Shown piece by piece: positions 1-37,682 of a DNA stretch of 64,000 nt; the first letter of the stretch is position 1, and every line of letters begins with the position of its first letter. The DNA lies in the IMG/VR virus record IMGVR_UViG_3300032829_000008, positions 2,579 through 66,578 of that record. One strand, given 5' to 3'. A program made the translations under genes and the position numbers. Source of the stretch: a virus. The notes beneath the pieces were generated by a model. That model saw only the letters and a program-made list of their open reading frames with translations, had not been told where the DNA came from and did not search any database.

Positions 1-1
1 C

Positions 2-1390
2 GATCGCAACAGCAACGGTGGCACCATCCTGGGCCACGTGTGGAAGATGTTCCAGGGTAAGCGGTTCGGCGGAGTGTGGGTGGCACGCGTGGCGGCTGCC
101 GCAGCGGTCAAGGCCAGCTTCACCCTGGAGACCGCGGCGGGTGGTGCCGGCACGCAGGTGGTCCGCGTGGACGCGTACGGCCCGGGCGCAGCGGGCAACG
201 ATATTCAGTTCAAGGTACTGGCGGCCACCGACGGCCAGGCGACCCACTGGAACCTGAGCATCAAGCTCTATGGACGCGTGTACCTGTACGAGAACCTCTG
301 CACCACCGGTGTGGACAACACCAACCAGGTCATCGGTTCGGATGACGCGGTCATCATCCGGTTGACCAAGCTGGCCGATGGACGTCCCGTCAACAACGCG
401 CCGTCCACGGATGGCGCCGATACCAACGGTTACACCAACCTGGGTCAGGTGGTGGCCAACTTCACCAGCGTGGCCGGCTCGGACGGCGCCATCGCGGATA
501 GCGACTACACCGCTACCGGTGGTCCGATGGAGATCATCAGCAACACGCGCGGCATCAACATCTGCTTGGTGGCGGGGCGCAGCAACGCGACCATCAAGAC
601 GAAGATCCAGGCACTCGCCGCAGTGGCGAGCCAGCGGGTGTGGTTTGCCTGTCCCGACAACGAGACGGTGACCGATACCAGCGCCGAGACGGAGCGCGCG
701 GCGTTCACGGTTACCGATCGTCTCTCGTACTGGTTCAACCACCCGTACATCATCGATTCGGTCACCAACGAGGAGATCGTCGACGAGCCGCACGGCCTGG
801 TGGCCAGCATCCTCAGTCAGACTGACCCGGACGTGCATCCCGGTGACCAGCGCAACGCCGCGTACACCAAGGGCGTCACCCGCGTGTACAACGAGCTGAG
901 CGACGCGCAGCGCGACGCGTTGGACGCCGCGGGTGTCAGCTATCTCAACGCGGACCTGGATACCAGCGGCAACCGCATCATCATCCCAGGCAACGCGCTC
1001 ACGTGCGACCTCAACAAGAACAACCGCGACCTGGACCAGCGCTACATGAAGGATTTCATCCTCTACGCGCTGGCGCTGTTGATGACGGGGGACCTGTTCC
1101 GCGGCAACACGCCGAGTGCGCGCGCCGCGCGTGCCGGTGCTGCCACCAGTTTCCTCACGGGCCTGGCCAACGCCGAGCGCTACGTGCTCAAGGACGACCA
1201 GGGCAACCCGATGTTCAGCTACAAGAACGACAACACCGTCAATAACCTGACGGACCAGGGCAACGGCGACCAGGTGGACCTGCTGCAGTGCCGGCTGATC
1301 GCCAAGAACAAGCGCATCCTGCTGAACGCGTTCATCGGACCAACCGTGGTAATCACGGAGACGCAGAACACCAGCACCGCGCAAGGCTAA
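2..1390 (+). CDS. Contractile tail sheath protein (5'-truncated by window edge)
   Basis: Frame open from position 2; sheath-like C-terminal half (L..AGVSYL, R..DFI); directly upstream of tube, chaperone and tape measure genes. Confidence 0.8.
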   Translation, partial: DRNSNGGTILGHVWKMFQGKRFGGVWVARVAAAAAVKASFTLETAAGGAGTQVVRVDAYGPGAAGNDIQFKVLAATDGQATHWNLSIKLYGRVYLYENLCTTGVDNTNQVIGSDDAVIIRLTKLADGRPVNNAPSTDGADTNGYTNLGQVVANFTSVAGSDGAIADSDYTATGGPMEIISNTRGINICLVAGRSNATIKTKIQALAAVASQRVWFACPDNETVTDTSAETERAAFTVTDRLSYWFNHPYIIDSVTNEEIVDEPHGLVASILSQTDPDVHPGDQRNAAYTKGVTRVYNELSDAQRDALDAAGVSYLNADLDTSGNRIIIPGNALTCDLNKNNRDLDQRYMKDFILYALALLMTGDLFRGNTPSARAARAGAATSFLTGLANAERYVLKDDQGNPMFSYKNDNTVNNLTDQGNGDQVDLLQCRLIAKNKRILLNAFIGPTVVITETQNTSTAQG

Positions 1391-22603: not shown

Positions 22604-22605
22604 TA

Positions 22606-22634
22606 ACAGCCCTCGAGGCAAACTCGAGGGCTGT
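22606..22634 (+). terminator. Stem-loop (terminator or transcript stabiliser)
   Basis: ACAGCCCTCGAG-GCAAA-CTCGAGGGCTGT, 12-bp perfect stem just after stop; no U-tract. Confidence 0.6.
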
Positions 22635-22643
22635 GCCGAGGAC

Positions 22644-23036
22644 ATGTTCAAGACCGCGTATCACAACAGTCACCCGCTGTGGCGGGGAATCGAACTGCGC
22701 CTGCACGGTGAGTACGATGGCGCCGAACTGCGCGAGCGGTTCCTATACTTGGCTTCAATGCTGATGCAGGGCGCCGTGCTGGTGCCGCACATCGAAGTGG
22801 ATGTCGATGTGGTACGTGTGCCCGGGGCGCCTGGAATGATAAATGTGGAGCGCGGCCAGGTGAGCTGCTGGCGCGTCATCATGGTGATGCCGTCAGAGAT
22901 CAAGACGTACGTGCCAGGTGCCCAGGATCTGCAGGACAAGTACGAGACTGCGGAGCGCCTGGCGGTATACTGGATGGAGCAGGCGCAGGCGTACAAGCAG
23001 CAGATCGAAGGGCAGGCCAGAAAGGCGGGAATATGA
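22644..23036 (+). CDS. Hypothetical protein
   Basis: RBS GAGGA, overlap with next gene. Confidence 0.5.
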   Translation: MFKTAYHNSHPLWRGIELRLHGEYDGAELRERFLYLASMLMQGAVLVPHIEVDVDVVRVPGAPGMINVERGQVSCWRVIMVMPSEIKTYVPGAQDLQDKYETAERLAVYWMEQAQAYKQQIEGQARKAGI

Positions 23037-23413
23037 CGAGCCAATTCGAAGCGCTGGACCAGGTGATGACTGAATACGAGCGCAGTTCGGGCAGGGACCC
23101 GCGCGCTGGTCACACGCTGGTGGTGCATCCGTGGCGCGCTATCGCCATGCTGGCGGAGCTGACCATGGCACCGCCCGATTACTTGGTGGCCGCCGTCACC
23201 CGGGGTTCAGGGGACGATGCCATCCTCAACTGGCGCGGGGTGCCGGTGCGCATGCGCGAGGCCGTGGATCCAAACGCATGCTCCGTGTTCGAGGACGCCA
23301 ATCTCCCGCGCCGCACCTGCTGCGATAAGTTCTCTGAGGGCATGATCACGGCATGGCTGCACGCGCAGACACAGCTGCGACGTGAACTTCGCGCGGCCGA
23401 GGGGAGCAACTGA
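23033..23413 (+). CDS. Hypothetical protein
   Basis: Start/stop overlaps. Confidence 0.5.
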   Translation: MTSQFEALDQVMTEYERSSGRDPRAGHTLVVHPWRAIAMLAELTMAPPDYLVAAVTRGSGDDAILNWRGVPVRMREAVDPNACSVFEDANLPRRTCCDKFSEGMITAWLHAQTQLRRELRAAEGSN

Positions 23414-25248: not shown

Positions 25249-25442
25249 AGTTGACACCTAGTCTATTGGAAGCGGTGTGGGCCGCGACATACGTGCGCGT
25301 GCTTAGTGCGATACCGTGCTCGTCAACTGGGTTGATTCACGAGCTGGCCGAAGTACTCGGTGATCCAACGCAGGCCCGCGTGCACCACGCGCAGCGCGCC
25401 GCCAACCGAGCAGTGGACGCACTGCAGGAGATGTTCGAGTGA
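25245..25442 (+). CDS. Hypothetical protein
   Basis: RBS AAGGAG, overlaps. Confidence 0.45.
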   Translation: MKLTPSLLEAVWAATYVRVLSAIPCSSTGLIHELAEVLGDPTQARVHHAQRAANRAVDALQEMFE

Positions 25443-26368
25443 AGCTCGCAATCAAGTTCTGGGAGTTCATCCGCGAGCGCGAGGCCATCCGCCTGCGCCG
25501 CGCCGCCGGTCAGCCCGCGCCGTGGACGGAGGATAAGATCCTCCGCGCGTACAAGTTCACCAACGTCAAGCGCGAGCATGATCGCACCAGCGTTGCGCTC
25601 AAGGCGATATACGATCAGCACGTGTTGCGGGCCAGCGACAGAGTGGTGTGGCTCAACTGCGCGCTGTATAGGCTGTTCGGCACCGCGGAAATGGCTGCAG
25701 CTCTGGGCTGGGTCAGGGCGTGGGGTGACGAGTCACACCGCAGGTCGCAAGTGCTCAGGTTGGCAGCCACACGCCTGGCCACGGGGCAGCGAGTGTTCAC
25801 TGGCGCGTACATTGTTCCTAACTGCGGTCGCACACGCCCCAAGCATGAGGTGGTGTGTAGTATTGTGGATGGAGTATGGAAGGCAGCACCAGAGCTGTGT
25901 GACCGTGCCATGGACCGTTGGGAACTGGCGGTAGGCGTGCTCACGCAGCTGTGGGGCATCGGCAGCTTCATCGCCAAAGAGATCGTCCTGGATTACGTCA
26001 TGGCCACCGGCTGGCGTCCCAGCGACTGGCAGACCTGGACGCCCATTGGTCCCGGAGCGCGGCGCGGTGCCATGCGGGTGCTGGACGGTAAGCTGATCCA
26101 TCCACACGGTTTGAGCGAGCACTACGCGCTGAAGGTGTGCCGCGAGTTGTACACGCAGCGTCGTGATCAGTGGGAGGACTGGTGGTCCACTGCGAATCAC
26201 GCCGCGGTGTTCAGCGACGAGGTGCGACGTAGTCGGAACTACAACCAACTGCCACCCCACAGCCACCTGGACCTGACCGACATCCAATTCCAGCTGTGCG
26301 AGTTCGACAAGTACCAGCGCGCCCTGCGCGGCGAGGGCCGACCTCGCAGCCGGTTTACACCGACGTAA
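25439..26368 (+). CDS. aGPT-Pplase clade 1 amino acid/amine:DNA transferase (thymidine hypermodification)
   Basis: ERE.IR.RR..G.P.PWT.D.IL..YKFTNV.RE.DR, FTGAY, GPGA.RG, LCEFDKY signatures. Confidence 0.88.
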   Translation: MKLAIKFWEFIREREAIRLRRAAGQPAPWTEDKILRAYKFTNVKREHDRTSVALKAIYDQHVLRASDRVVWLNCALYRLFGTAEMAAALGWVRAWGDESHRRSQVLRLAATRLATGQRVFTGAYIVPNCGRTRPKHEVVCSIVDGVWKAAPELCDRAMDRWELAVGVLTQLWGIGSFIAKEIVLDYVMATGWRPSDWQTWTPIGPGARRGAMRVLDGKLIHPHGLSEHYALKVCRELYTQRRDQWEDWWSTANHAAVFSDEVRRSRNYNQLPPHSHLDLTDIQFQLCEFDKYQRALRGEGRPRSRFTPT

Positions 26369-26420
26369 ACGAGCGTGCACACCCGCTCGCCAAGTGACCG
26401 GAAGGACATTTCCCTTGCGT

Positions 26421-26436
26421 TGGCCCGCGGGGTGCA
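26421..26436 (+). promoter_or_regulatory. sigma54-type promoter P1 (also fits sigma70 TTGCGT-17-TACGTT)
   Basis: TGGCCC-GCGGG-GTGCA; GTTTAC/GTAAAC at 26353/26365; ATG 15 nt after the C. Confidence 0.65.
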
Positions 26437-26449
26437 CTACGTTTGGGGC

Positions 26450-27550
26450 ATGACGAAGCAGCCTCCCGCCCTCCCCGTTATCGCGCCGGACGAGTATCTG
26501 TTCCCGACCGTGCAGCAGCGCGCCGACCTGCTGGACTGGATGCAGTACCGCCGCACGGTGTACCTGTGGCCCGACAGCAGCATGGGGCACGTGGCCATCA
26601 GCGAGCGCCTGAACAACTACACGGTGGAGCATGCCACCAAGCGCCCGAGCGCCGAATTCGCGCAGAAGGTGCTGCACCCTCAGACGTACCCCGCGGGGAG
26701 CGGGTGCCGTGGGAGGCGCTACTACTGGGTGTACGATACGGACTACCCGTGCAACGGTTGCCCGGACTGCCACAATTGGTGCGCGGGGTTCCACATCGGC
26801 GCATTCGTGTGGGCTGCCGCCGTTGGCGGCGAGCATCGCGAGATTGCCGGTGCCGTTGCCGCCTACCAGTGCCTGGCCGCGGTGGGCGCCGTGTTTGCCC
26901 GCCTGCAGGAGTGTCTGGCTCGCATTGGGCGGTTCTTCGAGCGCGCGGAGCAGCGCTGGGAGGAGCTGCGCAAGGGCTGCCTCTACCGCGTGCAGGGACG
27001 CCGCGGCAATGCCAAAAACCACAACGGCGCGGTGGGCGAGTGCTGCTGGATTGGGCAGGACGATTGGGGGCGGCCCCGCGCGGGGCTGCGCTTCCCGGGC
27101 CAGGAGAAGCTGGCGTACTTCGGTACCGGCAGCCTTGTCCGCGTTCCGACTCCGCCGCACGTGCTGGCGCAGCAGGAGCTGGATGCTCGCGAGCGCGCCG
27201 CTGCCAAGTTGGCGCAGCAGGCGGCCAAGGAGAAACTCGCAGCAGCGCCCCGCTACTCCGGTGGGCGCGATGGCACCGCGTACGTACTGCGCGGCGAGCA
27301 CCGCGGTCAGTTCGGGAAGGTGTTCTGGATTGGTGAGGACAAGCGCCGCGGTGGCGTGCGGCTGGGCATTCGCCCGGGCGTGGTGAAGGGTACCAGAGGT
27401 GCCGGCAAGCGTCAGTCCAACGTGGAGCCCATTTGGGCCAACGCGGCCGATTGCTGCGACCAGAATGATGAGGTGGGCATGGTGGCGTGGGACGCCCTGC
27501 AGCGCGGCGATGAGGCCGCGCTGAACGAGGTGCTGGAGGCCAGAGTCTAA
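26450..27550 (+). CDS. Hypothetical protein with two SH3/KOW-like repeats
   Basis: Repeated G.C/VFWIG.D...R.G.R motif; no SD before ATGACGA. Confidence 0.55.
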   Translation: MTKQPPALPVIAPDEYLFPTVQQRADLLDWMQYRRTVYLWPDSSMGHVAISERLNNYTVEHATKRPSAEFAQKVLHPQTYPAGSGCRGRRYYWVYDTDYPCNGCPDCHNWCAGFHIGAFVWAAAVGGEHREIAGAVAAYQCLAAVGAVFARLQECLARIGRFFERAEQRWEELRKGCLYRVQGRRGNAKNHNGAVGECCWIGQDDWGRPRAGLRFPGQEKLAYFGTGSLVRVPTPPHVLAQQELDARERAAAKLAQQAAKEKLAAAPRYSGGRDGTAYVLRGEHRGQFGKVFWIGEDKRRGGVRLGIRPGVVKGTRGAGKRQSNVEPIWANAADCCDQNDEVGMVAWDALQRGDEAALNEVLEARV

Positions 27551-27590
27551 CGCGCTCGGGTCGGGTGGCCCGGCGCATGAAAGGAGCAGT

Positions 27591-28109
27591 ATGGTGATGA
27601 CAGCACAGCAGAACTACAGTCGGCGCGAGGGCATCAAGGCCCAGGCGGCAGCTCGCCGCGCCAAGAAGGAGGGCCCCGTGGCCAAGGAGCTGATGGCCGC
27701 TGCTTGGGCGGCCCTGGTGAAGATGGTGGCCGACGATGGCTTGGACGATCAGCCAGCGCACGAGTTGTGGGACGTGGTGCCCTGGTGCGGCAAGCTACTG
27801 GCCCTGCCCCGTGACCCGGCCATGGCCGACGACTGCCACATGGAGTGGTCCGCGGAGGGCTGGCTGCTGGTGGAGGGGGCCGCACCCGTGCGCTGCCACG
27901 ACGAGCAGTGGTGCCTGTGGTGGGAGCGGGTGTGCCGCACCGCGGCCCGCTACGGCGTGGACGTGCGCGACAAGGTGCCGCCCGAGGGTGCCCTACTGGC
28001 CTGGGAAAAGGGCCGCAGCGGCCTGTGGTACGCGCTCAACCAGCTGGAGGACCAGCTGGGGCTGCCGCACAAGGTGCGGCAGTGGTCCGACATCAAGTGG
28101 GACGACTGA
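27591..28109 (+). CDS. Hypothetical protein
   Basis: RBS AAAGGAG. Confidence 0.55.
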   Translation: MVMTAQQNYSRREGIKAQAAARRAKKEGPVAKELMAAAWAALVKMVADDGLDDQPAHELWDVVPWCGKLLALPRDPAMADDCHMEWSAEGWLLVEGAAPVRCHDEQWCLWWERVCRTAARYGVDVRDKVPPEGALLAWEKGRSGLWYALNQLEDQLGLPHKVRQWSDIKWDD

Positions 28110-28145
28110 TAACGGGCGGCCACACGGTGTGGCCGCCCGTTATCA
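28107..28145. repeat. Perfect 19-bp inverted repeat with 1-nt spacer
   Basis: TGATAACGGGCGGCCACAC-G-GTGTGGCCGCCCGTTATCA. Confidence 0.9.
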
Positions 28146-28183
28146 CTCCGGAAGCAAGTCGGCCAAATCATGTGGACTGAAGT

Positions 28184-28199
28184 CGGCACGCCGGTAGCA
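28184..28199 (+). promoter_or_regulatory. sigma54-type promoter P2
   Basis: CGGCAC-GCCGG-TAGCA (GG-N10-GC) about 40 bp downstream of the GATAAC/GTTATC palindrome. Confidence 0.5.
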
Positions 28200-28271
28200 A
28201 TAAACCCCTTGCACGAGTCAGGTGGCTCGTGCTAACAACCCTAGACGATACCCAATGGAAGGAAGCAGACC

Positions 28272-28793
28272 ATGGCAGTAGTCAGCAAGCGCACGTTCGG
28301 GCTGCACGGCCCACTCACCTACGACCAGCTCAACCAGCTGAGCACCCTGGAGCTCATCCAGCTGCACAACGCCAAGAGCGAGAAGCAGATCAAGGTGTTC
28401 CACACCAAGGCCAAGGGCATGAACAAGGTGTGGGAGCTGTATGCCGCCGAAGAGGTGGTCGAGAACAATCCCCCCGCCGAGACCGCCGATGGTGGCGCGA
28501 ACGGCATCGAAACGACAACGGAGGCAAGTGACATGGCGAAGAAGACGAAGGCACCCAAGGCACCCAAGGCGAAGAAGGCTGGCGGTGGCACCCGCATCCC
28601 GGCGGACGCGACCATCAAGGTCCTGGCCAAGGAGAACCCTTACAAGAAGGGCACCAAGGCGTACGCCACGTTCGAGCTGTTCGGCAAGAGCAAGACGGTG
28701 GCCGAGTTCCGCGAGAAGGCGAGCGACAAGGATCGCTTCGACCCGGGGTACATCAAGTACTCCAGCCGCGACGGCTATATCAAGATCGGGTAA
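28272..28793 (+). CDS. Lys-rich, probably DNA-binding (histone-like) protein
   Basis: KKTKAPKAPKAKKA linker; I.V..KENP.K.GTKA...F domain; strongly biased codons; possible internal start MAKK at 28533. Confidence 0.6.
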   Translation: MAVVSKRTFGLHGPLTYDQLNQLSTLELIQLHNAKSEKQIKVFHTKAKGMNKVWELYAAEEVVENNPPAETADGGANGIETTTEASDMAKKTKAPKAPKAKKAGGGTRIPADATIKVLAKENPYKKGTKAYATFELFGKSKTVAEFREKASDKDRFDPGYIKYSSRDGYIKIG

Positions 28794-28983
28794 CTGGGTC
28801 GCCAGGCGACCCAGTAGGGCAGGCCGACCTCGGCCGACCTTAGGCGCCTCCGCGGGTGGAGCGGGGCGCCTGCCCTGCGAGTAGGCACGCAGCACACGGC
28901 CACGAGCACCTTCAGTGGTGAACCGCGCAGCGAACCCTGGGGCGCGGGGTGGTGTCTTGGCTGCGTGCCTGCTCGGAGGGCAC

Positions 28984-29808
28984 GTGCAAACCATCTTCGA
29001 GTTCGGCGACGCTAAGCTGGCCGCCGTGGACCTGGACCCGTTGTACGTGGCCGCGGTGCGCATGCCGTGGGGTCACGTGGAGCGCTGCAGGTTCACGCTG
29101 GCCGAGGTCGCGTTCGACCTGGCCGGCAAGGCAGCGGAGGTGGTGGAACGGTGTGCCTCCGGTATGCCGTTCTGGGACTCCATGCGCGCCGCCGCGGCGG
29201 ACACCAAGCGCGGCGCACCGCGCCGCTACTTCCGTGGGCCCAAGTGCATGGACGCGTTGGAGGTCATGCGCGAGCTGTACCCCGATGCGCCCGAGGCCCT
29301 GGCCGCGCTGGCCGGCACGTTCGCGCACGCCGAGGAGGTGGTATGCGGCAGCTGGCCGCTGTGGGGCCCCACCGCCGCGTTCAAGATCGCCGACATGGCC
29401 GAGCGGGTGTGCCAAGTGCCCGTGGACTTCGGCGCCGTCGGCGAGACGGAGATCTGCAGCAACGCGCAGGTGCGCAAGGGTTGGGACAAGGCCCGGGACG
29501 TGTTGGCAGCCGCAGGCGACGCCCGCGCGCAGGACCTGGCGGCCAGTCTGCGCCAGCACATCTGGTGCACCAAGGCACCACCGCGGTGGGACCGCGAGTT
29601 GGGGCCACAGGAGTGGGAGACGCTCCTATGCTACTACAGCCACGACGACGAGCACAATCATCACTTGCCCGGCATGGACCGACTCGGCATCGCCGAGGAG
29701 CTGTACGATCATGGCGACGTGGCCGCGGAGCTGCTGGGACACTTGCCCTGGGCGACCGAGGCGGAGATGTACGAATGGCTGGACGCCAAGCATAGGAGAA
29801 CCAAATGA
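28984..29808 (+). CDS. aGPT-Pplase clade 2 amino acid:DNA transferase
   Basis: DLDPLY, RG..RRYFRG, GP..AFKIADM.ER, APP..DR....QE.ET.LC signatures; GTG after GGAGG. Confidence 0.82.
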   Translation: MQTIFEFGDAKLAAVDLDPLYVAAVRMPWGHVERCRFTLAEVAFDLAGKAAEVVERCASGMPFWDSMRAAAADTKRGAPRRYFRGPKCMDALEVMRELYPDAPEALAALAGTFAHAEEVVCGSWPLWGPTAAFKIADMAERVCQVPVDFGAVGETEICSNAQVRKGWDKARDVLAAAGDARAQDLAASLRQHIWCTKAPPRWDRELGPQEWETLLCYYSHDDEHNHHLPGMDRLGIAEELYDHGDVAAELLGHLPWATEAEMYEWLDAKHRRTK

Positions 29809-30011
29809 AGAGCAGGCACGAGTTTGTAGTAGTCAACCAGGATGGTAAGCGTGTGCAGTGGCTGCTGGAGTTCGAAAAGGACGGCGTCAACTTCACGTTG
29901 AGCCACCAGGGAGGTCAAGCAGTCAGCGCTTGGCTGCCGCCCGCCACCGCCGAGGACCTGCGCGAGCTGTTGGCGATGTACCAGAATAGTCGCAAGCGGA
30001 GCGGCGCGTGA
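29805..30011 (+). CDS. Hypothetical protein
   Basis: RBS AGGAG, overlaps. Confidence 0.5.
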   Translation: MKSRHEFVVVNQDGKRVQWLLEFEKDGVNFTLSHQGGQAVSAWLPPATAEDLRELLAMYQNSRKRSGA

Positions 30012-30610
30012 GCACGCTGCTGCACATCATCGGGGCCGGTGCCACCGGCAAGTCCACCCTCACGCGCGGTCTGCTGGGGGAAGGTGCCGTGGACGGCAAC
30101 GCCTCCATCAGCGAGGCAGTACCACGCGCCAAGTACGGCGCCTCGCGGGACTTGTGTAGGTACGTCGTCGGCAATCTGAAGAACGGCACGGATAGCGTGA
30201 GTGAAATGGTGACTGCGGCGGCGATCGCCAACTGGCTGTTGGGATTGCACAGGACCAGTCTGGTGATCGTGGATGGCGTCCGCAGCAGCGCCAAGTGGTG
30301 CGTGGACTGGGCGCACTCCCCGGAGTGCAGAGCGACGCACCTGGCGTACGCGTACCTGGACCTGTCTCTCGACGAGACGCTGGAGCGCCTGCGCGCGCGT
30401 CGCCGCGGCAACGGCGAGAGCGACGAGCTGAGCGAGAAGACTGTGGCCAACGTCCGCGCGTTTCAGCGCCGCGCCCACGGCGTGTGGCGGAAGGTGGTGC
30501 AGCGTGCCGACCACCCGGGCAAGCCCACGGCACTGCTGGTGCTGCGCGAGGGCACCGCCGCGGATTGGTTGGAGCGGGCCGAGCAGTTCTTAACGCACCG
30601 CGTTGCGTAG
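30008..30610 (+). CDS. P-loop kinase, candidate 5-hmdU DNA kinase
   Basis: IIGAGATGKSTL, G.DSV, IVDG, LERLRARR lid; between transferase and hydroxymethylase. Confidence 0.7.
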   Translation: MSTLLHIIGAGATGKSTLTRGLLGEGAVDGNASISEAVPRAKYGASRDLCRYVVGNLKNGTDSVSEMVTAAAIANWLLGLHRTSLVIVDGVRSSAKWCVDWAHSPECRATHLAYAYLDLSLDETLERLRARRRGNGESDELSEKTVANVRAFQRRAHGVWRKVVQRADHPGKPTALLVLREGTAADWLERAEQFLTHRVA

Positions 30611-30615
30611 AAAGC

Positions 30616-30645
30616 TTGCTTCACTTGGCCGCGTAGTTGTAAGGT
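30616..30645 (+). promoter_or_regulatory. Putative sigma70-type promoter
   Basis: TTGCTT-N18-TAAGGT in AT-rich intergenic gap. Confidence 0.35.
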
Positions 30646-30675
30646 GGCCGGCACATTTAATGAAGGGTGGCAGCC

Positions 30676-30897
30676 ATGTACAAGCCTGTGCCGTGGGAAG
30701 GGTTGCGCAAGCTCTTGCGTTACTCCTTTGCCGACCTGGGGAGTTACGATGATCTAACGGTGGAGGAGCAGGCTGCGCTGACCCGCGAGGAGTTCGAGGT
30801 GCTGGCGGCTTGGGCCAAGCGGGATGAACCGATGGCCGCCGAGTTCCGATGTGAACACTGCGGCACCAACCACGTGGCCGAGCTGAGGGTCGCGTGA
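30676..30897 (+). CDS. Hypothetical protein
   Basis: SYDDLT..EQ...TREEF motif, C-terminal CxxC. Confidence 0.5.
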   Translation: MYKPVPWEGLRKLLRYSFADLGSYDDLTVEEQAALTREEFEVLAAWAKRDEPMAAEFRCEHCGTNHVAELRVA

Positions 30898-31892
30898 GGG
30901 TCCTGCATGTCCGCAACGTGCACCGCGCGATACCCGCAGCGCTGGCTCACTTAGTGGAGCACGGCGAGCGGCGCGAGAGTCGCAATGGCCCGGTGCTGCA
31001 GCCTCCGCATCCCGTCACCACCGTGTACAGCCACCCATTGGAGCGGGTGGAGGCGTGGGTCGCGCGCAACAGCAACCCGTACCTGCACCTGTTCGAGAGC
31101 GCGTGGATGCTGGCGGGGCGCAACGACGTGGCGAGCCTGGTCCGCTACGCCAAGCGGTTCGCCGAATTTAGCGACGACGGTGAGACGTTCAACGCGCCGT
31201 ACGGTTACCGCTGGCGTCACGCGACCACGCAAAATGTCGATCAACTCGCAGTGATCGCAGATCAGCTGCGCGCCAATCCCAACACGCGCCAGGCGGTGCT
31301 GCAGATTTGGACCGTCAAGCACGACCTGCTGGCGGTCACCAAGGACCACGCCTGCAACCTGACGGCGACGTTCCAGGTGGGCAGCGACGGTCGGCTGCAC
31401 ATGTGCGTGTTCTGCCGGTCCAACGACATCGTCTGGGGCTGCTACGGCGCCAACGCGGTGCATTTCAGCTATCTGCTGGAGTATGTGGCCGCCCGGGCGG
31501 GTATCCCGGTGGGGACGTACACGCAGATCAGTGTCAACTGGCACGGATACCTGTCCACGGTGCAGCCCCTGGTGGCAGCTGGGCTGCACCAGCACGGCGA
31601 GCACCCCAGTTCGTACGAGACTGGCGCCTGGACGCCGTATCCCATCACCAGGGGCGGATTCGACGCCCACTGGTTCGACGTGGACCTTGCGGTCGCCACC
31701 AGTGACCAAGGTCGCGCGGTGGAGGCCAGCTATCACCACGCCTGGTTTCGCGAGGTGCTGCTGCCGGTCATGCGCAGCCACGACGCCTACAAGGCGGGTG
31801 ATCGATTCGGCGCGCTGCACCACATATCAGACTGCGCTGCCACGGACTGGCAGCAGGCGTGCCGGTGGTGGCTCGCCAGAAAGGCAAAGTGA
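30894..31892 (+). CDS. Thymidylate synthase-family dUMP hydroxymethylase
   Basis: SRNG, YG.RWR, TRQAVL, catalytic HACN, RSND..WG..GAN (Asn indicates dUMP specificity). Confidence 0.88.
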   Translation: MRVLHVRNVHRAIPAALAHLVEHGERRESRNGPVLQPPHPVTTVYSHPLERVEAWVARNSNPYLHLFESAWMLAGRNDVASLVRYAKRFAEFSDDGETFNAPYGYRWRHATTQNVDQLAVIADQLRANPNTRQAVLQIWTVKHDLLAVTKDHACNLTATFQVGSDGRLHMCVFCRSNDIVWGCYGANAVHFSYLLEYVAARAGIPVGTYTQISVNWHGYLSTVQPLVAAGLHQHGEHPSSYETGAWTPYPITRGGFDAHWFDVDLAVATSDQGRAVEASYHHAWFREVLLPVMRSHDAYKAGDRFGALHHISDCAATDWQQACRWWLARKAK

Positions 31893-32206
31893 ACGAGACT
31901 CCGGAGCAGTGGCGCGAGCGCCACAAGGACAACCCGCGCCTGCAATACTACCTGCGCATGGATCCCAACTACGGCGCGCACAGGCATCAGCGCGAGTTCG
32001 TGGATCGCCAGTGGTGGCTGCAGGCCAACTTCCCCTGTCCGGTGAACCACGAGGTGCACCCCGGCGCGCCGTGCGCCGGCAACAGGGACCACGCAACGGA
32101 CGATGCCAAGCGCCACCCCGGAGGGCTGCACGCGCCGTGTTGCTACAGCGGCGCAGCGCTGCAGGCAGCGTACGAGTGGCAGCTCGCCTCCAGGGGGCGA
32201 CCATGA
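31889..32206 (+). CDS. Cys/His-rich hypothetical protein
   Basis: Overlapping start/stop. Confidence 0.45.
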   Translation: MNETPEQWRERHKDNPRLQYYLRMDPNYGAHRHQREFVDRQWWLQANFPCPVNHEVHPGAPCAGNRDHATDDAKRHPGGLHAPCCYSGAALQAAYEWQLASRGRP

Positions 32207-32802
32207 TCCGCGCCGGCAGGCCGCCCAAGCCTCGCGTCGGCCTGGACGCGGACGGCGTCCTGAGGGACTTCCAATCGGCCATGGTGGAGGTGATCAACGC
32301 CGCGCTGGCGCGCGCCCACACCGTGGAAGAGTGGACCGAGTACGAGTTCGAGCACGCGTTCGCCCTGAGTCCCAGTGAGCGCAAGCTGGTGGTGAACGCC
32401 ATGCTGGCGGAGCGAGATTTCGTCCGCAACATGCCGGCGCTGCCTCACCTGGACGTGGAGATGTTGCGCAACACCGCCACGGTGTATTGCGTGACCGCTC
32501 CGTGGCCGCACCACCCCACCTGGGTGGCGGATACATACTGGTGGCTACGCGAGCACTTCGATTTCCACCACGACAACGTCCTGCCGGTCCACGACAAATG
32601 GCTGATCAACCTTGATTGGCTGGTGGACGACAAGGTCAAGAATCTGGAGCTGTGGCAGCAAGAGCACCCCAAGGGCCACGCCGTGCTGTGGGAGACCCGA
32701 TGGAACGCGCACGAGCGCTGGTCGGGTCGGCGCACCAACAGCACCATGGTACTGCAGGCATGGGTGGAGGAGCACGCCCTGGAACTGGCAGGTGCACGAT
32801 GA
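32203..32802 (+). CDS. HAD-family 5'(3')-deoxyribonucleotidase (NT5C-like)
   Basis: LDADGVL.DF, VTAP, WL..HF, K, LVDDK, WN. Confidence 0.85.
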   Translation: MIRAGRPPKPRVGLDADGVLRDFQSAMVEVINAALARAHTVEEWTEYEFEHAFALSPSERKLVVNAMLAERDFVRNMPALPHLDVEMLRNTATVYCVTAPWPHHPTWVADTYWWLREHFDFHHDNVLPVHDKWLINLDWLVDDKVKNLELWQQEHPKGHAVLWETRWNAHERWSGRRTNSTMVLQAWVEEHALELAGAR

Positions 32803-33521
32803 TGGTCGACTACATCGCGCAGCTGGACGCCGTGGCGGCCAGTTTCCAGGAGCAGGATCCGGCCGTGGCGCTGCAGGCGTGCTGGATGGAGTACGAGGGT
32901 GCGGCGCGCGCCGTCCACTGGGACGTGCTGGGTGAGAAGGCGAGACTCGGTAGCTGCCGCACCCTGGGCCGCGAGCTGATGTCGCTGCTGTACCGTGCGT
33001 GTCCCAACACCTCCGCCAAAGCAGATGCCGACCTCATCAAGCTCAAGGACCGCGACTATGGCGGCAGCTGGTGCAAGCGCGGCGGAGCCAACGCGTTCTT
33101 CATGCTGTGCCGAAAGTGGGATCGCCTGGAGCAGTTCCTGGCGCAGCACGGCGGCAACTGGTGGACCATGCTCCGGAAGGAGGCCGGTGGTATCGAGCCG
33201 ATACTGGATACGGCCATGGACCTGCGCTGCTACCTGATGCTGGTGGAGGCGTGGCACTGCGCCGCGGAAGTGCGCGCGCCACACTGCAACACCTGCGGCC
33301 AGAAGATGGCGCGCACCGTGGACGATACCGGTTGGTATTGCCCGAACACACACTCGGCGCGCACTGTCGTCGCAGGTGTTGACATTCCCTCTGGGGCCAC
33401 GCACTACGGCGCGCCACCTCTCGGTACTGCGGTCCAGCTGTGTGGTGACCTGCACGGTGGGAATTGCTCCTACCAACGCGGCCACCAGGGCAAGTGCTCC
33501 GATGACCAGGCGCATCCATAA
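32799..33521 (+). CDS. Nucleotide-modification-associated domain 1 (Nmad1, MazG-like) protein with C-terminal Zn-binding extension
   Basis: K..DYG.SW.KRGG..AFFML.RKWDRLE...DLR.YL.LVE. Confidence 0.7.
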   Translation: MMVDYIAQLDAVAASFQEQDPAVALQACWMEYEGAARAVHWDVLGEKARLGSCRTLGRELMSLLYRACPNTSAKADADLIKLKDRDYGGSWCKRGGANAFFMLCRKWDRLEQFLAQHGGNWWTMLRKEAGGIEPILDTAMDLRCYLMLVEAWHCAAEVRAPHCNTCGQKMARTVDDTGWYCPNTHSARTVVAGVDIPSGATHYGAPPLGTAVQLCGDLHGGNCSYQRGHQGKCSDDQAHP

Positions 33522-33522
33522 A

Positions 33523-33675
33523 ATGGAGGCCAAAGATTTCTACGAGACGTGGCGCCGCGCTGCCCGTAAGCATGGTGTGGAAGTGGATGAGAGGTGGGAG
33601 GACCTCACAGAGTGGGAACAAGCCGCCTGGGAGGCGGTGGTGAGCCGTGCCCTAGACCTCGCGTGGTCAAGGTAG
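33523..33675 (+). CDS. Hypothetical protein
   Basis: WEDL...EQAAWEAV motif. Confidence 0.5.
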   Translation: MEAKDFYETWRRAARKHGVEVDERWEDLTEWEQAAWEAVVSRALDLAWSR

Positions 33676-33678
33676 AAA

Positions 33679-35610
33679 ATGCAGCTGCCCCTCACATTCG
33701 TGCTGCCTCAGGCACCGTGGCGCCCAGTGCCGGTGAACCAGCTGCCAAGCTGGGAGGGCGCCAAGCGCGTGGCCGTGGACGTGGAGTGCCGGGACCCAGA
33801 CCTCAAGGAGTTGGGTCCCGGCACGTACCGCCCGGGCTGCCGCGTGGTCGGCATGTCCTTCGCTATCGAGGACGGCCCCGCGCACTACGTGCCGTGGGGC
33901 CACGAGGGCGGGGATAACGTCGACGAGGTGCACGCCAAGGCATATTTCCGGGATAACCTCGGCGCATTCGACGGCATCATCACCGGAGCGAACCTGGGGT
34001 ACGACCTGGGGTGGATTTGGAAGGACGTGTGCCGCACCCCCAAGGTGAGGGACTACCGCGACACCCAGGTGGCGGACGTCATGTGCTGCGAGCTGCACGA
34101 CCGCTACGGGTTGGATGCCATGGCCGCGCGCTGGGCACTGCCAGGCAAGAACCAGGAGCTGCTCAAGGCTGCCGCCGCCGCGCACAAGATTCATCCCAAG
34201 CGCGACCTGTGGCGGCTACCCGCCCGCTACGTGGGCCCCTATGGTGAGTGGGACGCGGCCCTGTGCCTCCAGCTGCTGCGCCGTCAAGAGAAGAAGATCG
34301 AGGAGGAAGAGGTCCAGATCATCTATACTCTGGAGTGCGCCGTGACGCCGATCTTGGTGGAGATGCGCGAGCGCGGCGTGCGGGTGAACATCCAAAAGGT
34401 GCTGGAGATCAAGCGGTGGGCCCTGGCGGAGGGTGCCCAGCGTCTGCACTTCGTCGCGCAGCGCACCGGTGTGCAGCTGGCCATGGAGAACGTGTGGAGC
34501 GCCGAGGCTATGGCCAAGCCACTGCAAGCGCTCGGTCTCAAGATTCCGCAGATGGCCAAGCCCACCAAGGCCGACCCCGGGCGCACGCTGCCCAGTATCA
34601 CTGGTGCTTTCCTGGACAGCTGCGGCGAGGTGGGCCAGGCCCTGGGTCGCGCACGAGACATGTCCAAGCTGACGCAGTTCGCCGATCGCGTGTTGCGCTA
34701 CCAGGTGAATGGTCGCGTGCACTGCACGTTCAATCAATTGCGCACCACCAAGGGCGAGGACGAGAACGAGGATAAGGGTGCACGCTTTGGTCGTCTGAGC
34801 AGCGATCACTACAACCTCCAACAGGAGCCGGGACGCGACGACGAGTTTGGCGAGCGGTGGCGCGACGTATACGAGCCAGAGGACGACGAGGAGTGGGTGA
34901 GCTGCGACTGGTCGCAGCAGGAGCCGCGCTGGGGCGTGCACTACGCCGAGCTGCTTGGGCTGCCCGGGGCCAAGGAGTTCGCCGACAAGTACCGCGCCAA
35001 CCCGGAACTCGACATCCACCAGGCACTGGCCGACATCAGCGGCATGCCCCGCAAGATCGTCAAGAATTTCGTCAACGGACGCCTGTACAACATGGGTGAC
35101 GTCAAGCTGTGCCGCAGCATCGGTTGCCCGGTGGTGTGGAAGATGGGACGCGATGGCGTGCAGCGCGAGGCCCCAGGACCAGAGGGCCAAGCGAAGATCG
35201 ACACGTTCAATCAATTCGCTCCCTGGCTGCGCGGCATCAACCGCGAAGCGCAGCGCCAAGCCGAGCGCAAGGGACACGTGTGGACCGTGCTCCGGCGCAA
35301 GTGCCGCTTCCCACGGGACGCGCAGGGTAACGTGGATTGGGGACAAAAGGCGTGGTCGCGCATCGGCCAAGGCAGCGCAGCGGACCAGGGTAAGGCCACG
35401 CTGGTGGCCGCGCACAAGGCGGGCATCCCTCTGCGCAGCATGGTGCACGACGAGTACAACTTCAGCACGCGCAGTCGAGTGCAGGCCCGCACCATGCGCG
35501 AGCTGATGATGAACACTGTGAAAGCCAGTGTGCCCATGCACGTCACGGTGAAGATCGGCCCCAGCTGGGGCAAGGGTAAGAAGATGAAACCCGAGGAGCT
35601 GGAATCGTGA
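33679..35610 (+). CDS. polA: Family A DNA polymerase with 3'-5' exonuclease
   Basis: DVE (ExoI), N..YD (ExoII), Y...D (ExoIII), GRLSS...NLQQ, DWSQQEPR (A), QGSAAD, VHDE (C). Confidence 0.93.
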   Translation: MQLPLTFVLPQAPWRPVPVNQLPSWEGAKRVAVDVECRDPDLKELGPGTYRPGCRVVGMSFAIEDGPAHYVPWGHEGGDNVDEVHAKAYFRDNLGAFDGIITGANLGYDLGWIWKDVCRTPKVRDYRDTQVADVMCCELHDRYGLDAMAARWALPGKNQELLKAAAAAHKIHPKRDLWRLPARYVGPYGEWDAALCLQLLRRQEKKIEEEEVQIIYTLECAVTPILVEMRERGVRVNIQKVLEIKRWALAEGAQRLHFVAQRTGVQLAMENVWSAEAMAKPLQALGLKIPQMAKPTKADPGRTLPSITGAFLDSCGEVGQALGRARDMSKLTQFADRVLRYQVNGRVHCTFNQLRTTKGEDENEDKGARFGRLSSDHYNLQQEPGRDDEFGERWRDVYEPEDDEEWVSCDWSQQEPRWGVHYAELLGLPGAKEFADKYRANPELDIHQALADISGMPRKIVKNFVNGRLYNMGDVKLCRSIGCPVVWKMGRDGVQREAPGPEGQAKIDTFNQFAPWLRGINREAQRQAERKGHVWTVLRRKCRFPRDAQGNVDWGQKAWSRIGQGSAADQGKATLVAAHKAGIPLRSMVHDEYNFSTRSRVQARTMRELMMNTVKASVPMHVTVKIGPSWGKGKKMKPEELES

Positions 35611-36437
35611 AGACCATCATCACCGTGGACACCGAGACCACCGGCCTGGACGTGCAGCGGGACCGCGTGGTGGAGTTGGCCTACAGCCTCGACGGGGTCG
35701 AGGCTGTAGTCCACCGCTTCAATCCTGGCATGCTCATGGAGCCGGAGGTGATTGCCAAGCATGGCATCACCAACGAGGAGCTGGCCAGCTGCCCACCCTT
35801 CAGCGCGTGGTGGCAGGACATGGTGGGTGACCTGGAGGGAGCGGGCGTGTGGGTGGGCTACAACCCGCAGTTCGACATCGAGATCCTCATGGCGGAGTTC
35901 GCGCGATGCGGCCACGTGTTCCGCCCACCGCGCATGGTGGTGGATCCCAAGCGACTGTGGGACATCAACGATCCGCGCCCGCCGCGCACCCTGGAGGCCG
36001 CGTACAAGACGTTCGTGGACCCGGCGGGGTTCGCCAACGCGCACTCCGCCAAAGCGGATATCTTAGCCACGCGCCGCGTGCTCGACGCCATGCTGGACAA
36101 GTGGCAGCTCCGCGGCAAGCCCTGGTCGGAATTGGACCCGGAGCGCGCCACCTGGTGGGGTCCCACCAAGCACATCGCCTGGCAGCCCTGGACCATCGGC
36201 CGAAGGGGTATCGGTAATGCAGACCCCATGTACAGCTTGGTAGCCAACTTCGGCAAGTACGAGGGACGCTGCGTCGTGGAGCAGGTGCCGCGCGACTACT
36301 GGCGGTGGCTATTAAGCCAGGACTTCCCCAGCCACGTCAAGCAGCTGGCCAGCGCGTTGCTGGATGACACCAAGCACCCCACCGCGGTGCTGCAGTGGGC
36401 GTGGAAACAGTGGCCGCCTATGAAGGGAGTAGTATGA
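35607..36437 (+). CDS. DEDDh 3'-5' exonuclease (DnaQ-like)
   Basis: DTETTGLD, HGIT, GYN..FD, AHSA.AD, FGKY.G. Confidence 0.9.
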   Translation: MKTIITVDTETTGLDVQRDRVVELAYSLDGVEAVVHRFNPGMLMEPEVIAKHGITNEELASCPPFSAWWQDMVGDLEGAGVWVGYNPQFDIEILMAEFARCGHVFRPPRMVVDPKRLWDINDPRPPRTLEAAYKTFVDPAGFANAHSAKADILATRRVLDAMLDKWQLRGKPWSELDPERATWWGPTKHIAWQPWTIGRRGIGNADPMYSLVANFGKYEGRCVVEQVPRDYWRWLLSQDFPSHVKQLASALLDDTKHPTAVLQWAWKQWPPMKGVV

Positions 36438-37039
36438 TCATCGAGCCGGTCGTCATGGAGTGTCCGGAATGCCACAAGCTGCACGTGGATGAGGGCGAAT
36501 TCGCCAAACGTCCGCACCACACGCACCGATGCGTGGACGATGCTGCCGGCACCGGCTGTGGCCACGAGTGGCGCTTGGAGCACTACGTGCGCGGCGTGGA
36601 GCGCGACGCCACGGCGTGGCACCAGCGCTTCATGGACATGGCGCTGCTGGTGTCGCACTGGTCCAAGGACCCCAGCACCAAGGCGGGCGCTGTCGTCGTG
36701 GACGAGCAGCGTCGCGTGCTGAGCCTGGGGTACAACGGATTTCCACGCGGCGTGGTGGACCATCCGGATCGCTACGCCAACCGCGCCGTCAAGTACAAGC
36801 TGGTCGTTCACGCGGAGGCCAACGCCATCCTCACCGCGTACGTCGGTGGTGCCACGCTGTACGCCACCAAGTGGCCATGCAGCGACTGCAGCAAGCTCAT
36901 CGCCCAGGCGGGCATCGCCCGGGTGGTTGCCCGGCGGCAAGGCGCCAACGCCAGCGACGTCGATCCACATTGGGCCGACGACCATCGGTGGGCGGAACTC
37001 ATCCTGCGCGAGGCGGGAGTGAAGGTGGTGGAGCTGTGA
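36434..37039 (+). CDS. dCMP deaminase with N-terminal Zn-binding domain
   Basis: SKDPSTK.GA, GYNG.PRG, HAE.NAI, PCxxC. Confidence 0.92.
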   Translation: MIIEPVVMECPECHKLHVDEGEFAKRPHHTHRCVDDAAGTGCGHEWRLEHYVRGVERDATAWHQRFMDMALLVSHWSKDPSTKAGAVVVDEQRRVLSLGYNGFPRGVVDHPDRYANRAVKYKLVVHAEANAILTAYVGGATLYATKWPCSDCSKLIAQAGIARVVARRQGANASDVDPHWADDHRWAELILREAGVKVVEL

Positions 37040-37377
37040 GGACCTGGCGCCACAACGGCGAGCGCTGGCACGAGAGCACGGAACCAACGTGGCGCCGCGT
37101 CTTGCGGTGGCTGGTGTGGCTGGGCGGGTGGGAGTCGACTCGACAGTTGCCGCTGCGGTTGCGCCTGAAGAACGTCACACCGGTATCCCTGCTGGGACAC
37201 CGGGTCACTTGGTACGGCTGGGGCGGTCAAATTCGCACGCCGGAGGGCTGGCTGGTGTGGGAACGCCGTAGTGGCCAGGTGTTCGTCAGCAAGGATGGCA
37301 CGCCCTCCGGCGCGCACCTGTGGCTGCGCAACCCGCCGCGCGAAGTGCTGGAGCAGAGCAGTCGGAGATACTCGTGA
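37036..37377 (+). CDS. Hypothetical Trp-rich protein
   Basis: Overlapping start/stop. Confidence 0.45.
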   Translation: MRTWRHNGERWHESTEPTWRRVLRWLVWLGGWESTRQLPLRLRLKNVTPVSLLGHRVTWYGWGGQIRTPEGWLVWERRSGQVFVSKDGTPSGAHLWLRNPPREVLEQSSRRYS

Positions 37378-37682
37378 GCGAGACGACCGAGACGATCGGC
37401 GAGTGGGCGGAGGGCACCTTCGGCCCCGTGAATCCCGTGGACGCTGCCCACCGCATCATGAAGGAGGCGGTGGAGTGCGCGGAGGCCACCAGCCAGCTGG
37501 TGCTGCACGGACTGGACGCCGAGGAGAAGGTGCGGTTGGAGCTAGCCGATATCATCATCACGTGCCGACGCCTGGCCTACACCTTGGGCCTGGACGTGGA
37601 CGATGCGGTGAACATCAAGATGGCCGTCAACCGTCAGCGCAAGTGGCGCCTGGATGGCCGCGGAGGAGGGCAACATGTCTAA
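37374..37682 (+). CDS. MazG-like (DUF550-type) dNTP pyrophosphohydrolase
   Basis: EWA..TFG, E..E, ELADIII, KM.VNR.RKW. Confidence 0.75.
   Translation: MSETTETIGEWAEGTFGPVNPVDAAHRIMKEAVECAEATSQLVLHGLDAEEKVRLELADIIITCRRLAYTLGLDVDDAVNIKMAVNRQRKWRLDGRGGGQHV

Follow-up and report, generated by a model that had tools for sequence, protein, structure and literature searches.

Bacteriophage pathways that elaborate 5-hydroxymethyl-2'-deoxyuridine (5-hmdU) in DNA into hypermodified thymidines are the closest described counterparts of the gene module considered here, which lies in IMG/VR virus record IMGVR_UViG_3300032829_000008. The window analysed, 64,000 nucleotides in length, comprises bases 2579-66578 of this single 66,578-bp virus contig; 2.6 kb lie outside it, and the completeness estimate is 97%. 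In M6 and YuA, the base 5-NedU is produced by the glycine transferase gp51, the pyridoxal phosphate (PLP) decarboxylase gp52, the radical S-adenosylmethionine (SAM) isomerase gp53 and the kinase gp54, and in the Salmonella phage ViI the base 5-NeOmdU by the serine transferase gp247 and the PLP decarboxylase gp226. PaMx11 makes 5-AcNmdU with a glycine transferase (gp46), a flavin adenine dinucleotide (FAD) lyase (gp47), an acetyltransferase (gp48) and a kinase (gp49) (Lee 2021, PMC8989533), and PaMx11 structures have been described (Wen 2024, PMC11472151). The Delftia phage ΦW-14 relies on the kinase gp37 and the putrescine:DNA transferase gp109 (Lee 2021, PMC8989533), and the diaminopropanyl-T (dapT) pathway of Acinetobacter phage SH-Ab 15599 (hereafter 15599) comprises DctD, a dUMP hydroxymethylase, a polymerase, the 5-hmdU DNA kinase 5-HMUDK and the transferase Pplase2, plus a dTTPase/dUTPase (Li 2026, PMC13458397). 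For Rhodococcus phage Tonitrus, a system of five genes has been annotated (PMC11955845), and many clusters of the family are still uncharacterized (Li 2026). The characterized donors that we found in the literature were only glycine, serine, putrescine and 1,3-diaminopropane. Carin-5 was considered as a further related system and rejected, its SP-15-type glycosylation being unrelated.

Pathway genes recognized by Pfam and PHROG (Table 1) bear out the call, made in a first-pass annotation of this DNA, of a 5-hmdU-based thymidine hypermodification module. We propose that the module is a minimal complete pathway, in which a single transferase would form a direct adduct with a donor other than the four just named, a reading to which we give an even chance on the strength of sequence comparisons. 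Its logic is that of 15599, which likewise has no tailoring step and combines a deaminase, a dUMP hydroxymethylase, a polymerase, a 5-HMUDK, one Pplase2 and a nucleotide-pool pyrophosphatase; the catalytic D, E, T, C and D residues are kept in both transferases. The two enzymes nevertheless belong to different clades and differ in their pockets (Y54/A88/Y139/G227 plus D238 in 15599, D45/P79/T130/Y217 in the window), and no homologue of the 15599 dTTPase/dUTPase gp18 was found among all six-frame open reading frames (ORFs) of the window genome. Moreover, 15599 is a 143-kb Ackermannviridae phage, whereas the window genome is 66.6 kb long and has a PaMx11-like replication module. ΦW-14 resembles the window in being a myovirus and in attaching an amine directly to phosphorylated 5-hmdU with no tailoring step, as we infer for the window, but its gp109 has Gly at the position after the catalytic Cys (Cys+1) and Tyr at the W146 position, and lies on a long branch outside the window's clade. 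Direct transfer in these two phages, giving putrescinyl-T and diaminopropanyl-T as they are described, means that the missing tailoring enzymes are not the peculiarity that the first-pass annotation had seen in them.

The tailored systems differ more. PaMx11 is the closest annotated genome, its replication and nucleotide module being syntenic at 37-50% identity, and its gp46 is the best match of known structure; the window, however, has no homologue of gp47 or gp48, with a 68-amino-acid (68-aa) ORF in their place, and its transferase is ~30% identical with a different pocket. Its clade 1 gene lies 3.6 kb upstream of the kinase gene, in contrast to the adjacent genes of PaMx11, which is a siphovirus. 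M6 and YuA have the same kinase, transferase and clade 1 families in the same polymerase/deaminase context, but use PLP and radical SAM enzymes and a Y/E/W/K pocket, where in the window neither enzyme was found and the pocket is D/P/T/Y. ViI gp247 is, like the window protein, a Pplase2 with an ET..C core from a myovirus, yet it is very divergent, has Trp at Cys+1 and requires the PLP enzyme.

Sequence similarity identifies the product of the clade 2 gene as a solid member of the Pplase2 (PF18724) family, also called amino acid:DNA transferases (AADTs), despite a sub-cutoff Pfam score. It matches phrog_6364 (2.1e-29), PF18724 is carried by 22 of its 25 database relatives, and a profile of its clade finds among solved structures the PaMx11 gp46 glycinyltransferase (8z2m, 1.7e-29) and a second transferase (25qc, 1.5e-28); the tblastn comparison with gp46 gave 1e-20. 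It stands in a 5-hmdU context, with the kinase candidate 200 nt and the thymidylate synthase (TS)-like gene 1.1 kb downstream, and has the same neighbours in the related loci L002-L004. Functional residues were mapped from Wen 2024 and Li 2026 by alignment and counted over 25 clade sequences; the 15599 translation used for this mapping reproduces all 11 residues named in Li 2026. In the catalytic core, reference residues D24, K150/K159, E243, C247 and D262 correspond to D18, K134, E212, C216 and D232 of the window protein, each kept in 25/25 sequences, and T244 corresponds to T213 (Thr in 23, Ser in two). E212, T213 and C216 are thereby the equivalents of the metal-holding Glu/Thr and the essential Cys of gp46 (E243/T244/C247) and of 15599 (E222/T223/C226), residues whose essentiality has been reported (Lee 2021, PMC8989533; Li 2026, PMC13458397), and D18, K134 and D232 are equivalents of pocket residues common to all donor classes.

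The transferase is the interesting part of the module, since its predicted donor pocket is unlike those of the four characterized kinds. A maximum-likelihood tree of 36 sequences that included four characterized transferases placed the window protein with 24 relatives in a separate clade (support 99/100, stem of 1.96 substitutions per site), which excludes M6 gp51 and PaMx11 gp46 (glycine), ΦW-14 gp109 (putrescine) and ViI gp247 (serine); the last two form long branches, the terminal branch of ViI measuring ~8-10. Throughout this clade the donor contacts are replaced. The reference residues Y51 and E92/E96 have become Asp (D45) and Pro (P79), and K248 (G227 in 15599) has become Tyr (Y217), each in 25/25 sequences; W146 (Y139 in 15599) is replaced by Thr in 13 and Cys in 12 (T130 in the window), and Y257 by L, M, W, N or F (L228). 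In addition, H220 is followed by two extra Asp residues (D221 and D222), which create an acidic SHDD stretch. The glycine-class signature (E96, K248 and Y257 of YuA; W146 of gp46) is thus absent, the window having P79, Y217, L228 and T130, and from the diamine-class signature of G227, H230 and D238 the window shares only H220 (= H230). An exhaustive profile search yielded 575 family representatives, 147 of which were aligned together with 37 in-hand sequences. Among these 184 aligned members the glycine-type signature occurs in 130, and the D/P/[TC]/Y signature is confined to the window's clade (27 sequences and two fragments).

Donor choice is set by the Cys+1 and Y257-equivalent positions, with K at Cys+1 for glycine and G for diamines, and a swap of two residues turned a diamine transferase into a glycine transferase (Li 2026). 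The first-pass annotation had noted that the motif reads ETLLCYY in place of the more usual ETxLCK. The motif is real and the difference at Cys+1 is meaningful, but it is no oddity of the catalytic motif: E212, C216 and Y217 are invariant (25/25), which makes ETLLCYY the norm of the clade, and because Cys+1 differs while Glu, Thr and Cys are kept, it points to a distinct donor pocket and not to a catalytic defect. As the donor-contact residues are unlike those of every characterized enzyme, the donor is probably none of glycine, serine, putrescine and 1,3-diaminopropane. With the carboxylate-binding Lys and Tyr lost and acidic residues gained, the balance tips mildly towards a cationic amine or basic amino acid. 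In all likelihood the clade is among the uncharacterized clusters of Li 2026, whose sequence similarity network and Fig. S6B may already show it.

The alternative that best withstands these observations, which we consider unlikely though far from negligible, is that the same minimal pathway employs a known donor (glycine, serine, putrescine, 1,3-diaminopropane or glutamate), so that the product would be a known base, or N-alpha-GlyT, a known intermediate, as the end product. The known enzymes have the same catalytic core, K134 (= YuA K159, which forms a salt bridge to the glycine carboxylate) is retained in 25/25 sequences, and the host's most abundant polyamine partly drives the product of enzymes with a broad in vitro donor range (Li 2026). 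Against a known donor stands the clade-wide replacement of four donor-contact positions and Y51, which leaves no match to any of the four characterized signatures. K248 and Y257, needed for glycine, and G227 and D238, needed for diamines, are both absent, and the clade is well separated in the tree.

Two further observations were made on the family at large. In the lineages adjoining the window's clade (P0040 and P0043-P0046), Asp occupies the Y51 position, Asn or Asp the Cys+1 position and Ser or Ala the E92 position, which on this alignment marks them as further uncharacterized pocket types. Some representatives greatly exceed 270 aa (P0047, 692 aa; P0056, 557 aa; P0091, 436 aa), with the transferase domain at one end, and are probably fusions with other pathway enzymes.

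The claim that no recognizable tailoring enzyme accompanies the transferase, also made in the first-pass annotation, held in six-frame hidden Markov model (HMM), tblastn and ORF scans of the 97%-complete genome: PLP, radical-SAM, FAD and acetyltransferase enzymes are absent as far as HMMs can see. PF04055 (Radical_SAM), PF01266 (DAO), PF00583 (Acetyltransf_1) and PF00291 (PALP) had no match at E<=1 in the six-frame translation of the whole genome, whereas 14/14 control genomes were positive in each tailoring-family search. Tblastn of the genome with M6 gp52/gp53 and PaMx11 gp47/gp48 gave nothing below E 0.3, and Pfam scans of 83 ORF calls found no tailoring family. Eight larger ORFs outside these scans were assigned by PHROG as helicase, Dda, primase, endolysin, terminase, portal, head morphogenesis and major head protein. 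With no tailoring enzyme, the adduct would itself be the final base, and the product is still most likely to be an amine or amino-acid adduct left intact, possibly a new base, as first suggested.

A tailoring enzyme of a new family might nevertheless be hidden among the unplaced ORFs, an explanation that we regard as improbable. Its best candidates are the ORFs of 391 and 172 aa, which lie inside the module, between the clade 1 and transferase genes, and have strong coding signals (G+C at third codon positions, GC3, of 0.85 and 0.90, respectively), and no tool assigns either. The 391-aa ORF had no Pfam, PHROG or phage tblastn match and nothing below E 0.3 in a PDB sequence search, and for the 172-aa ORF all atlas neighbours stayed below TM 0.5. 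A Cys cluster (DTDYPCxGCxxC) and two 'WIGxD...R.GL' KOW-like repeats in the 391-aa protein are both conserved in its single relative, P0028 (33% identity). Structure searches of the hypothetical ORFs, proposed in the first-pass annotation as a check, gave a weak dUTPase-like match for the 240-aa ORF discussed below and no usable match for the 391-aa and 172-aa proteins. Both of these are missing from L002-L004, whose transferases belong to the same clade, so that any step they perform would be lineage-specific; no cofactor-binding fold is hinted at, the resemblances being weak ones to KOW/SH3-like repeats, and a complete relative, G003, is without any candidate.

A third ORF of the module, that of 173 aa upstream of the transferase, is probably DNA-binding rather than an enzyme, to judge from its domain layout and from the way the domain recurs in other ORFs of the genomes G002 and G003. 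Over its C-terminal domain it shares 48-53% identity with the ORF that precedes the transferase gene in L002, L003 and L004; this domain is found in two ORFs each in G002 and G003 and once in the window's genome. The N-terminus matches PaMx11 gp45 (E 1e-5). Counterparts lie at L002:4614-4973, L003:9210-9956, L004:3461-4252 and L001:8431-8925.

Viral contigs with this transferase clade numbered only three in a related-locus search combined with a back-translated signature scan. In L002, L003 and L004 the genes are arranged as SNF2 helicase, u173-like protein, transferase, PF18748 kinase, clade 1, TS and HD 5'-deoxynucleotidase, with no tailoring gene. No relatives were returned by a locus search with the single transferase sequence or by the clade alignment in genome contigs; in metagenome contigs the clade alignment gave ten loci and no new long clade context, L023 duplicating L004 and L024 being 1.8 kb long. 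One of the three, G003 (L036-L038, 45,210 bp), is a 100%-complete P22-like podovirus (P22_portal 2e-162; P22 coat), and its 47 ORFs include no recognizable tailoring enzyme (45 were Pfam-scanned, giving 24 families; the other two are a needle protein and a DNA ligase). The M6 and PaMx11 tailoring enzymes have no match in it, and no radical SAM match was found in G001-G003. By comparison, in two glycine-type loci, with K at Cys+1, an FAD-like ORF with a Rossmann motif (GAGLFGS) directly follows the transferase, as in PaMx11 (L006:10835-11650 and L009:10782-11687).

The same cassette thus occurs in a P22-like podovirus and in the contractile-tailed phage of the window, and we conclude from this that it moves between morphotypes. 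The broader proposal would be that this 'Y-type' Pplase2 clade (D45/P79/T130/Y217 plus SHDD) represents a fifth donor specificity that makes an undescribed thymidine adduct, and that a four-gene cassette of hydroxymethylase, kinase, clade 1 protein and transferase is mobile between morphotypes. We advance it tentatively, at somewhat less than an even chance; as donor, a basic amino acid or an amine that is bulkier or cationic would be plausible, and the clade 1 partner may handle non-hypermodified 5-hmdU.

Because the clade 1 protein is dispensable in the published reconstitutions, we count one transferase in the window and not the two of the first-pass annotation. The M6 kinase gp54 and transferase gp51 sufficed, the adduct still being made without the clade 1 protein gp55 (Lee 2021, PMC8989533). 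Likewise, purified 5-HMUDK and Pplase2 were enough to produce dapT in vitro, and the dapT pathway as set out in Li 2026 (PMC13458397) names no other post-replicative enzyme, although 15599 also encodes a clade 1 protein, beside its hydroxymethylase. By analogy with these systems, only the clade 2 protein belongs to a demonstrated transferase type. The clade 1 protein of the window matches PF18723 over residues 6-296 of 309 (136.3 bits, cutoff 25) and is 26-29% identical to PaMx11 gp50 and M6 gp55. An LCEFDKY..GEG motif is invariant in clade 1 proteins, and in those of the window and L002-L004 the essential clade 2 Glu aligns with Gln; in hhalign, small profiles of the two clades gave a probability of 0.45%, over the motif only. 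Pfam classes the clade 1 family as the helical domain of the kinase, and SP10 has a fusion of its kinase with a PPlase domain (Lee 2018, PMC5889632, Table 3), which points to joint action of clade 1 and the kinase; the predicted complex of the window's kinase and clade 1 protein scored 0.00, which is evidence neither way. We therefore consider clade 1 an accessory protein of unproven role.

Should clade 1 instead be a second transferase or a converter, two products would be expected, the other being a second adduct or thymine formed by reductive conversion of phosphorylated 5-hmdU. The invariant Cys of the LCEFDKY motif would suit such an enzyme, SP10 makes glutamyl-T without any PF18724 match and with that kinase-PPlase fusion (Lee 2018, PMC5889632), and much 5-hmdU ends as T in ΦW-14 and 15599, by an enzyme that the accounts of these pathways do not name (Lee 2021; Li 2026). 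In view of the dispensability of M6 gp55 for adduct formation (Lee 2021), the Gln in place of Glu, the negligible similarity of the two profiles and the Pfam classification, we judge this possibility slimmer again than that of a hidden tailoring enzyme.

The weakest assignment of the module is that of the P-loop ORF, a candidate that would work like a 5-HMUDK although it is not filed as a PF18748 member. A profile of five kinases (M6 gp54, PaMx11 gp49 and those of L002-L004) matched only this ORF in the six-frame set (E 6e-7), blastp against M6 gp54 gave E 0.009, and its Walker A motif (GATGKS) and the conserved Gly, Asp and Arg positions are kept. That the pathway stops at 5-hmdU or that the module is decaying, with an inactive kinase or transferase, would fit a kinase short of PF18748 and a transferase below the Pfam cutoff, but is very improbable with the transferase catalytic residues intact and invariant across the 25-member clade, the kinase motifs kept and all ORFs open with high GC3.

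In the pathway that we favour, dCMP deaminase would supply dUMP, and the TS-like enzyme would convert it to 5-hydroxymethyl-dUMP. Host kinases and the phage family A polymerase would then put 5-hmdU into DNA, while the NT5C nucleotidase, the MazG-like protein and perhaps the 240-aa protein would deplete dTMP, dTTP and dUTP. After replication, the divergent P-loop kinase would phosphorylate the 5-hydroxymethyl group, and the clade 2 transferase would flip the base, with Cys216 attacking C6 and E212/T213 holding the metal. The phosphate would leave and a free small-molecule nucleophile would add to the exocyclic methylene; with no further tailoring, this adduct would be the final base.

Several observations weigh against this minimal pathway with a new donor. 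Every one of its enzymatic steps is drawn from homology and published pathways. The pocket was mapped by sequence alignment to ~30%-identical enzymes and not on a structure, and the two published glycine-bound structures disagree on how glycine is bound (Li 2026). Since the in vitro donor range is broad and the in vivo product is partly set by host metabolite abundance (Li 2026), pocket residues alone may not fix the product. The transferase scores 22 bits against PF18724, and 20.8 bits in six frames, below the cutoff of 26.2. PF18748 (5-HMUDK) has no match in six frames at E<=1, although the syntenic L002 kinase does match it (1.9e-7), and the tie of the candidate kinase to known 5-HMUDKs consists of a small custom profile and pairwise E values of 0.002-0.07. 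Eight module ORFs (391, 172, 173, 68, 76, 115, 240 and 113 aa) are without assignment and leave room for a novel tailoring enzyme; models of the 391-aa protein were poor (atlas pLDDT 0.54 and no neighbour with TM >0.3; AF2 pLDDT 40.5, unusable). Finally, the clade context comes from three contigs and does not include those of P0005, P0007, P0014, P0015, P0018 and P0024.

The gene list of the first-pass annotation stood for the most part, with clade 1, clade 2, the kinase, the TS-like enzyme, NT5C, dCMP deaminase and the MazG-like protein at or near the places given, but an Nmad1 was not recovered. The TS-like enzyme has phrog_5131 as its best PHROG, well ahead of phrog_160 (4e-29), and is 44% identical to PaMx11 gp51 and 27% identical (E 1e-14) to the 15599 enzyme annotated as a deoxyuridylate hydroxymethyltransferase. 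It appears orthologous to the enzymes of 5-hmdU phages and is inferred to be a dUMP hydroxymethylase, hydroxymethylation being preferred to methylation from context only.

The label Nmad1 had probably been given to the 240-aa ORF. We take Nmad1 to be PF07659/DUF1599, which has no match at E<=1 in the six-frame translation of the genome, and neither the 240-aa ORF nor its L013 homologue has a Pfam match; among eight relatives, none bears a useful Pfam label. Homologues lie between TS and PolA in L010 and L013. The AF2 model (pLDDT 64, pTM 0.63) is an all-alpha bundle for which Foldseek found nothing in the PDB at E<=0.001, as did phmmer with the sequence. A structure search of 48,161 chains gave as the top match the dimeric dUTPase 5myd (Z 6.4, root-mean-square deviation 3.8, 123 residues aligned), with 1w2y at Z 5.2 and 2a3q at Z 4.7, all within the range (Z <~13) that is not decisive for helical bundles. 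The protein may be a dimeric-dUTPase/MazG-like NTP pyrophosphatase.

Table 1. Features of the hypermodification module and tail genes, with positions in the window
Feature	Position	Strand	Matches and remarks
Tail sheath gene	1..1390; ORF start 199 nt before the window, G000:C1:2379	+	Match to solved sheath 9ezm
149-aa tube-sized ORF	1403-1852		Directly after the sheath gene
Clade 1 'aGPT-Pplase' / HMUDK_hel protein, 309 aa	25439..26368	+	PF18723 E 1.8e-39; phrog_2396 4.8e-44
391-aa orphan ORF, Cys cluster, two KOW-like repeats	26375..27550	+	Lineage-specific insert
172-aa ORF	27591..28109	+	No Pfam or PHROG match
173-aa protein: short N-terminal domain, Lys/Ala/Pro-rich linker, ~65-aa C-terminal domain	28272..28793	+	Upstream of transferase
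Clade 2 Pplase2 / AADT, 274 aa	28984..29808	+	Catalytic Cys216 codon, 29629-29631
68-aa ORF	29805..30011	+	Slot of PaMx11 FAD lyase and acetyltransferase, between transferase and kinase; no family match
Divergent P-loop kinase, candidate 5-hmdU DNA kinase, 200 aa	30008..30610	+	phrog_800 8.9e-7; weak AAA_18/AAA_33 matches
76-aa ORF	30667..30897	+	No family match
TS-like enzyme, inferred dUMP hydroxymethylase, 332 aa	30894..31892	+	PF00303 2.8e-21; phrog_5131 3.2e-104
115-aa ORF	31859..32206	+	No family match
HAD 5'(3')-deoxyribonucleotidase (NT5C), 199 aa	32203..32802	+	PF06941 3.2e-15; DADGV motif in translation
240-aa all-alpha protein, Cys-rich C-terminal tail	32799..33521	+	Predicted fold; member of a small family that Pfam does not cover
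Family A DNA polymerase (PolA), 643 aa	33679..35610	+	PF00476 2.4e-26; 44% identical to PaMx11 gp55
RNase T/DnaQ-like exonuclease, 276 aa	35607..36437	+	PF00929 2.7e-11
dCMP deaminase, 201 aa	36434..37039	+	PF00383 7.5e-20; 49% identical to PaMx11 gp56
113-aa ORF	37036..37377	+	Frame-specific GC3 signal; no Pfam match
MazG-like nucleotide pyrophosphohydrolase, 120 aa	37320..37682	+	PF12643 27.8 bits (cutoff 27); PF04447 24.4 bits (cutoff 23); phrog_9147 3.4e-15

The sequence of the virion genes indicates a contractile-tailed phage of myovirus morphotype. This follows from the sheath match, in which the full 529-aa sheath ORF aligned with the solved tail sheath 9ezm in two stretches (E 1.2e-8), and from a P2-type baseplate (Baseplate_J 1.3e-23, Phage_base_V 1.2e-4, Phage_tail_X 2e-4, and the phrog_6 baseplate wedge, 4.8e-27). 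The Pfam sheath models PF04984 and PF17482 had no match, tblastn of the sheath fragment against phages gave none either, and the tube-sized ORF had no PDB sequence match. The contractile tail of the first-pass annotation is therefore confirmed, but it is not the departure from YuA and M6 that it was made out to be: Table 1 of Lee 2018 (PMC5889632) places ΦW-14, SP10 and the ViI-like phages in the Myoviridae, 15599 belongs to the Ackermannviridae, and modules of this kind are common in myoviruses, so that a contractile tail is not unusual.

The window has a G+C content of 65%, and its + strand carries every credible gene. Megablast of the region against 50,697 phage records gave no match; at the protein level there is synteny, at 37-50% identity, with the PaMx11/M6 group of Pseudomonas siphoviruses, in a helicase, a Pam3 gp32/33/34-like trio, a Dda helicase, the TS-like enzyme, PolA, dCMP deaminase and primase. 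The block of helicase, Pam3 gp32-, gp33- and gp34-like genes and Dda, at 18598-24639, has the order of PaMx11 gp38-gp42 and of a metagenomic contig, with counterparts at L001:586-5367 and L010:531-5111; the three Pam3-like families in it are without known function. Between positions 24000 and 39500, a promoter scan found no promoter-like site and a terminator scan four terminator-like sites, all on the non-coding strand (7.4 in shuffled sequences). No tRNA genes were found. At 16008-18598 there are overlapping ORFs of 219, 349 and 273 aa with a weaker third-position GC signal and no Pfam match, and gene calls there are uncertain. A 174-aa ORF at 52851-53375, adjoining the terminase genes, matches HD_3 weakly (21.8 bits, cutoff 22.5); in the relatives the HD 5'-deoxynucleotidase gene directly follows the TS gene, unlike this ORF.

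Taken as a whole, the earlier interpretation was partly right: its core of hypermodification without tailoring, with a possible new base, agrees with our analysis, and it erred on the second transferase and on what is unusual about the locus. Hypermodified thymidines protect phage DNA against restriction enzymes and other nucleases, and the DNA of this phage may carry an undescribed base. Phages of this kind would be missed by kinase-based metagenome screens such as that of Lee 2021 (tblastn, E<=1e-5). New adducts may also serve as tools for the enzymatic labelling and sequencing of DNA, and a small, tight clade with an unstudied pocket signature in a minimal cassette would offer a testable case with little to obscure the chemistry.

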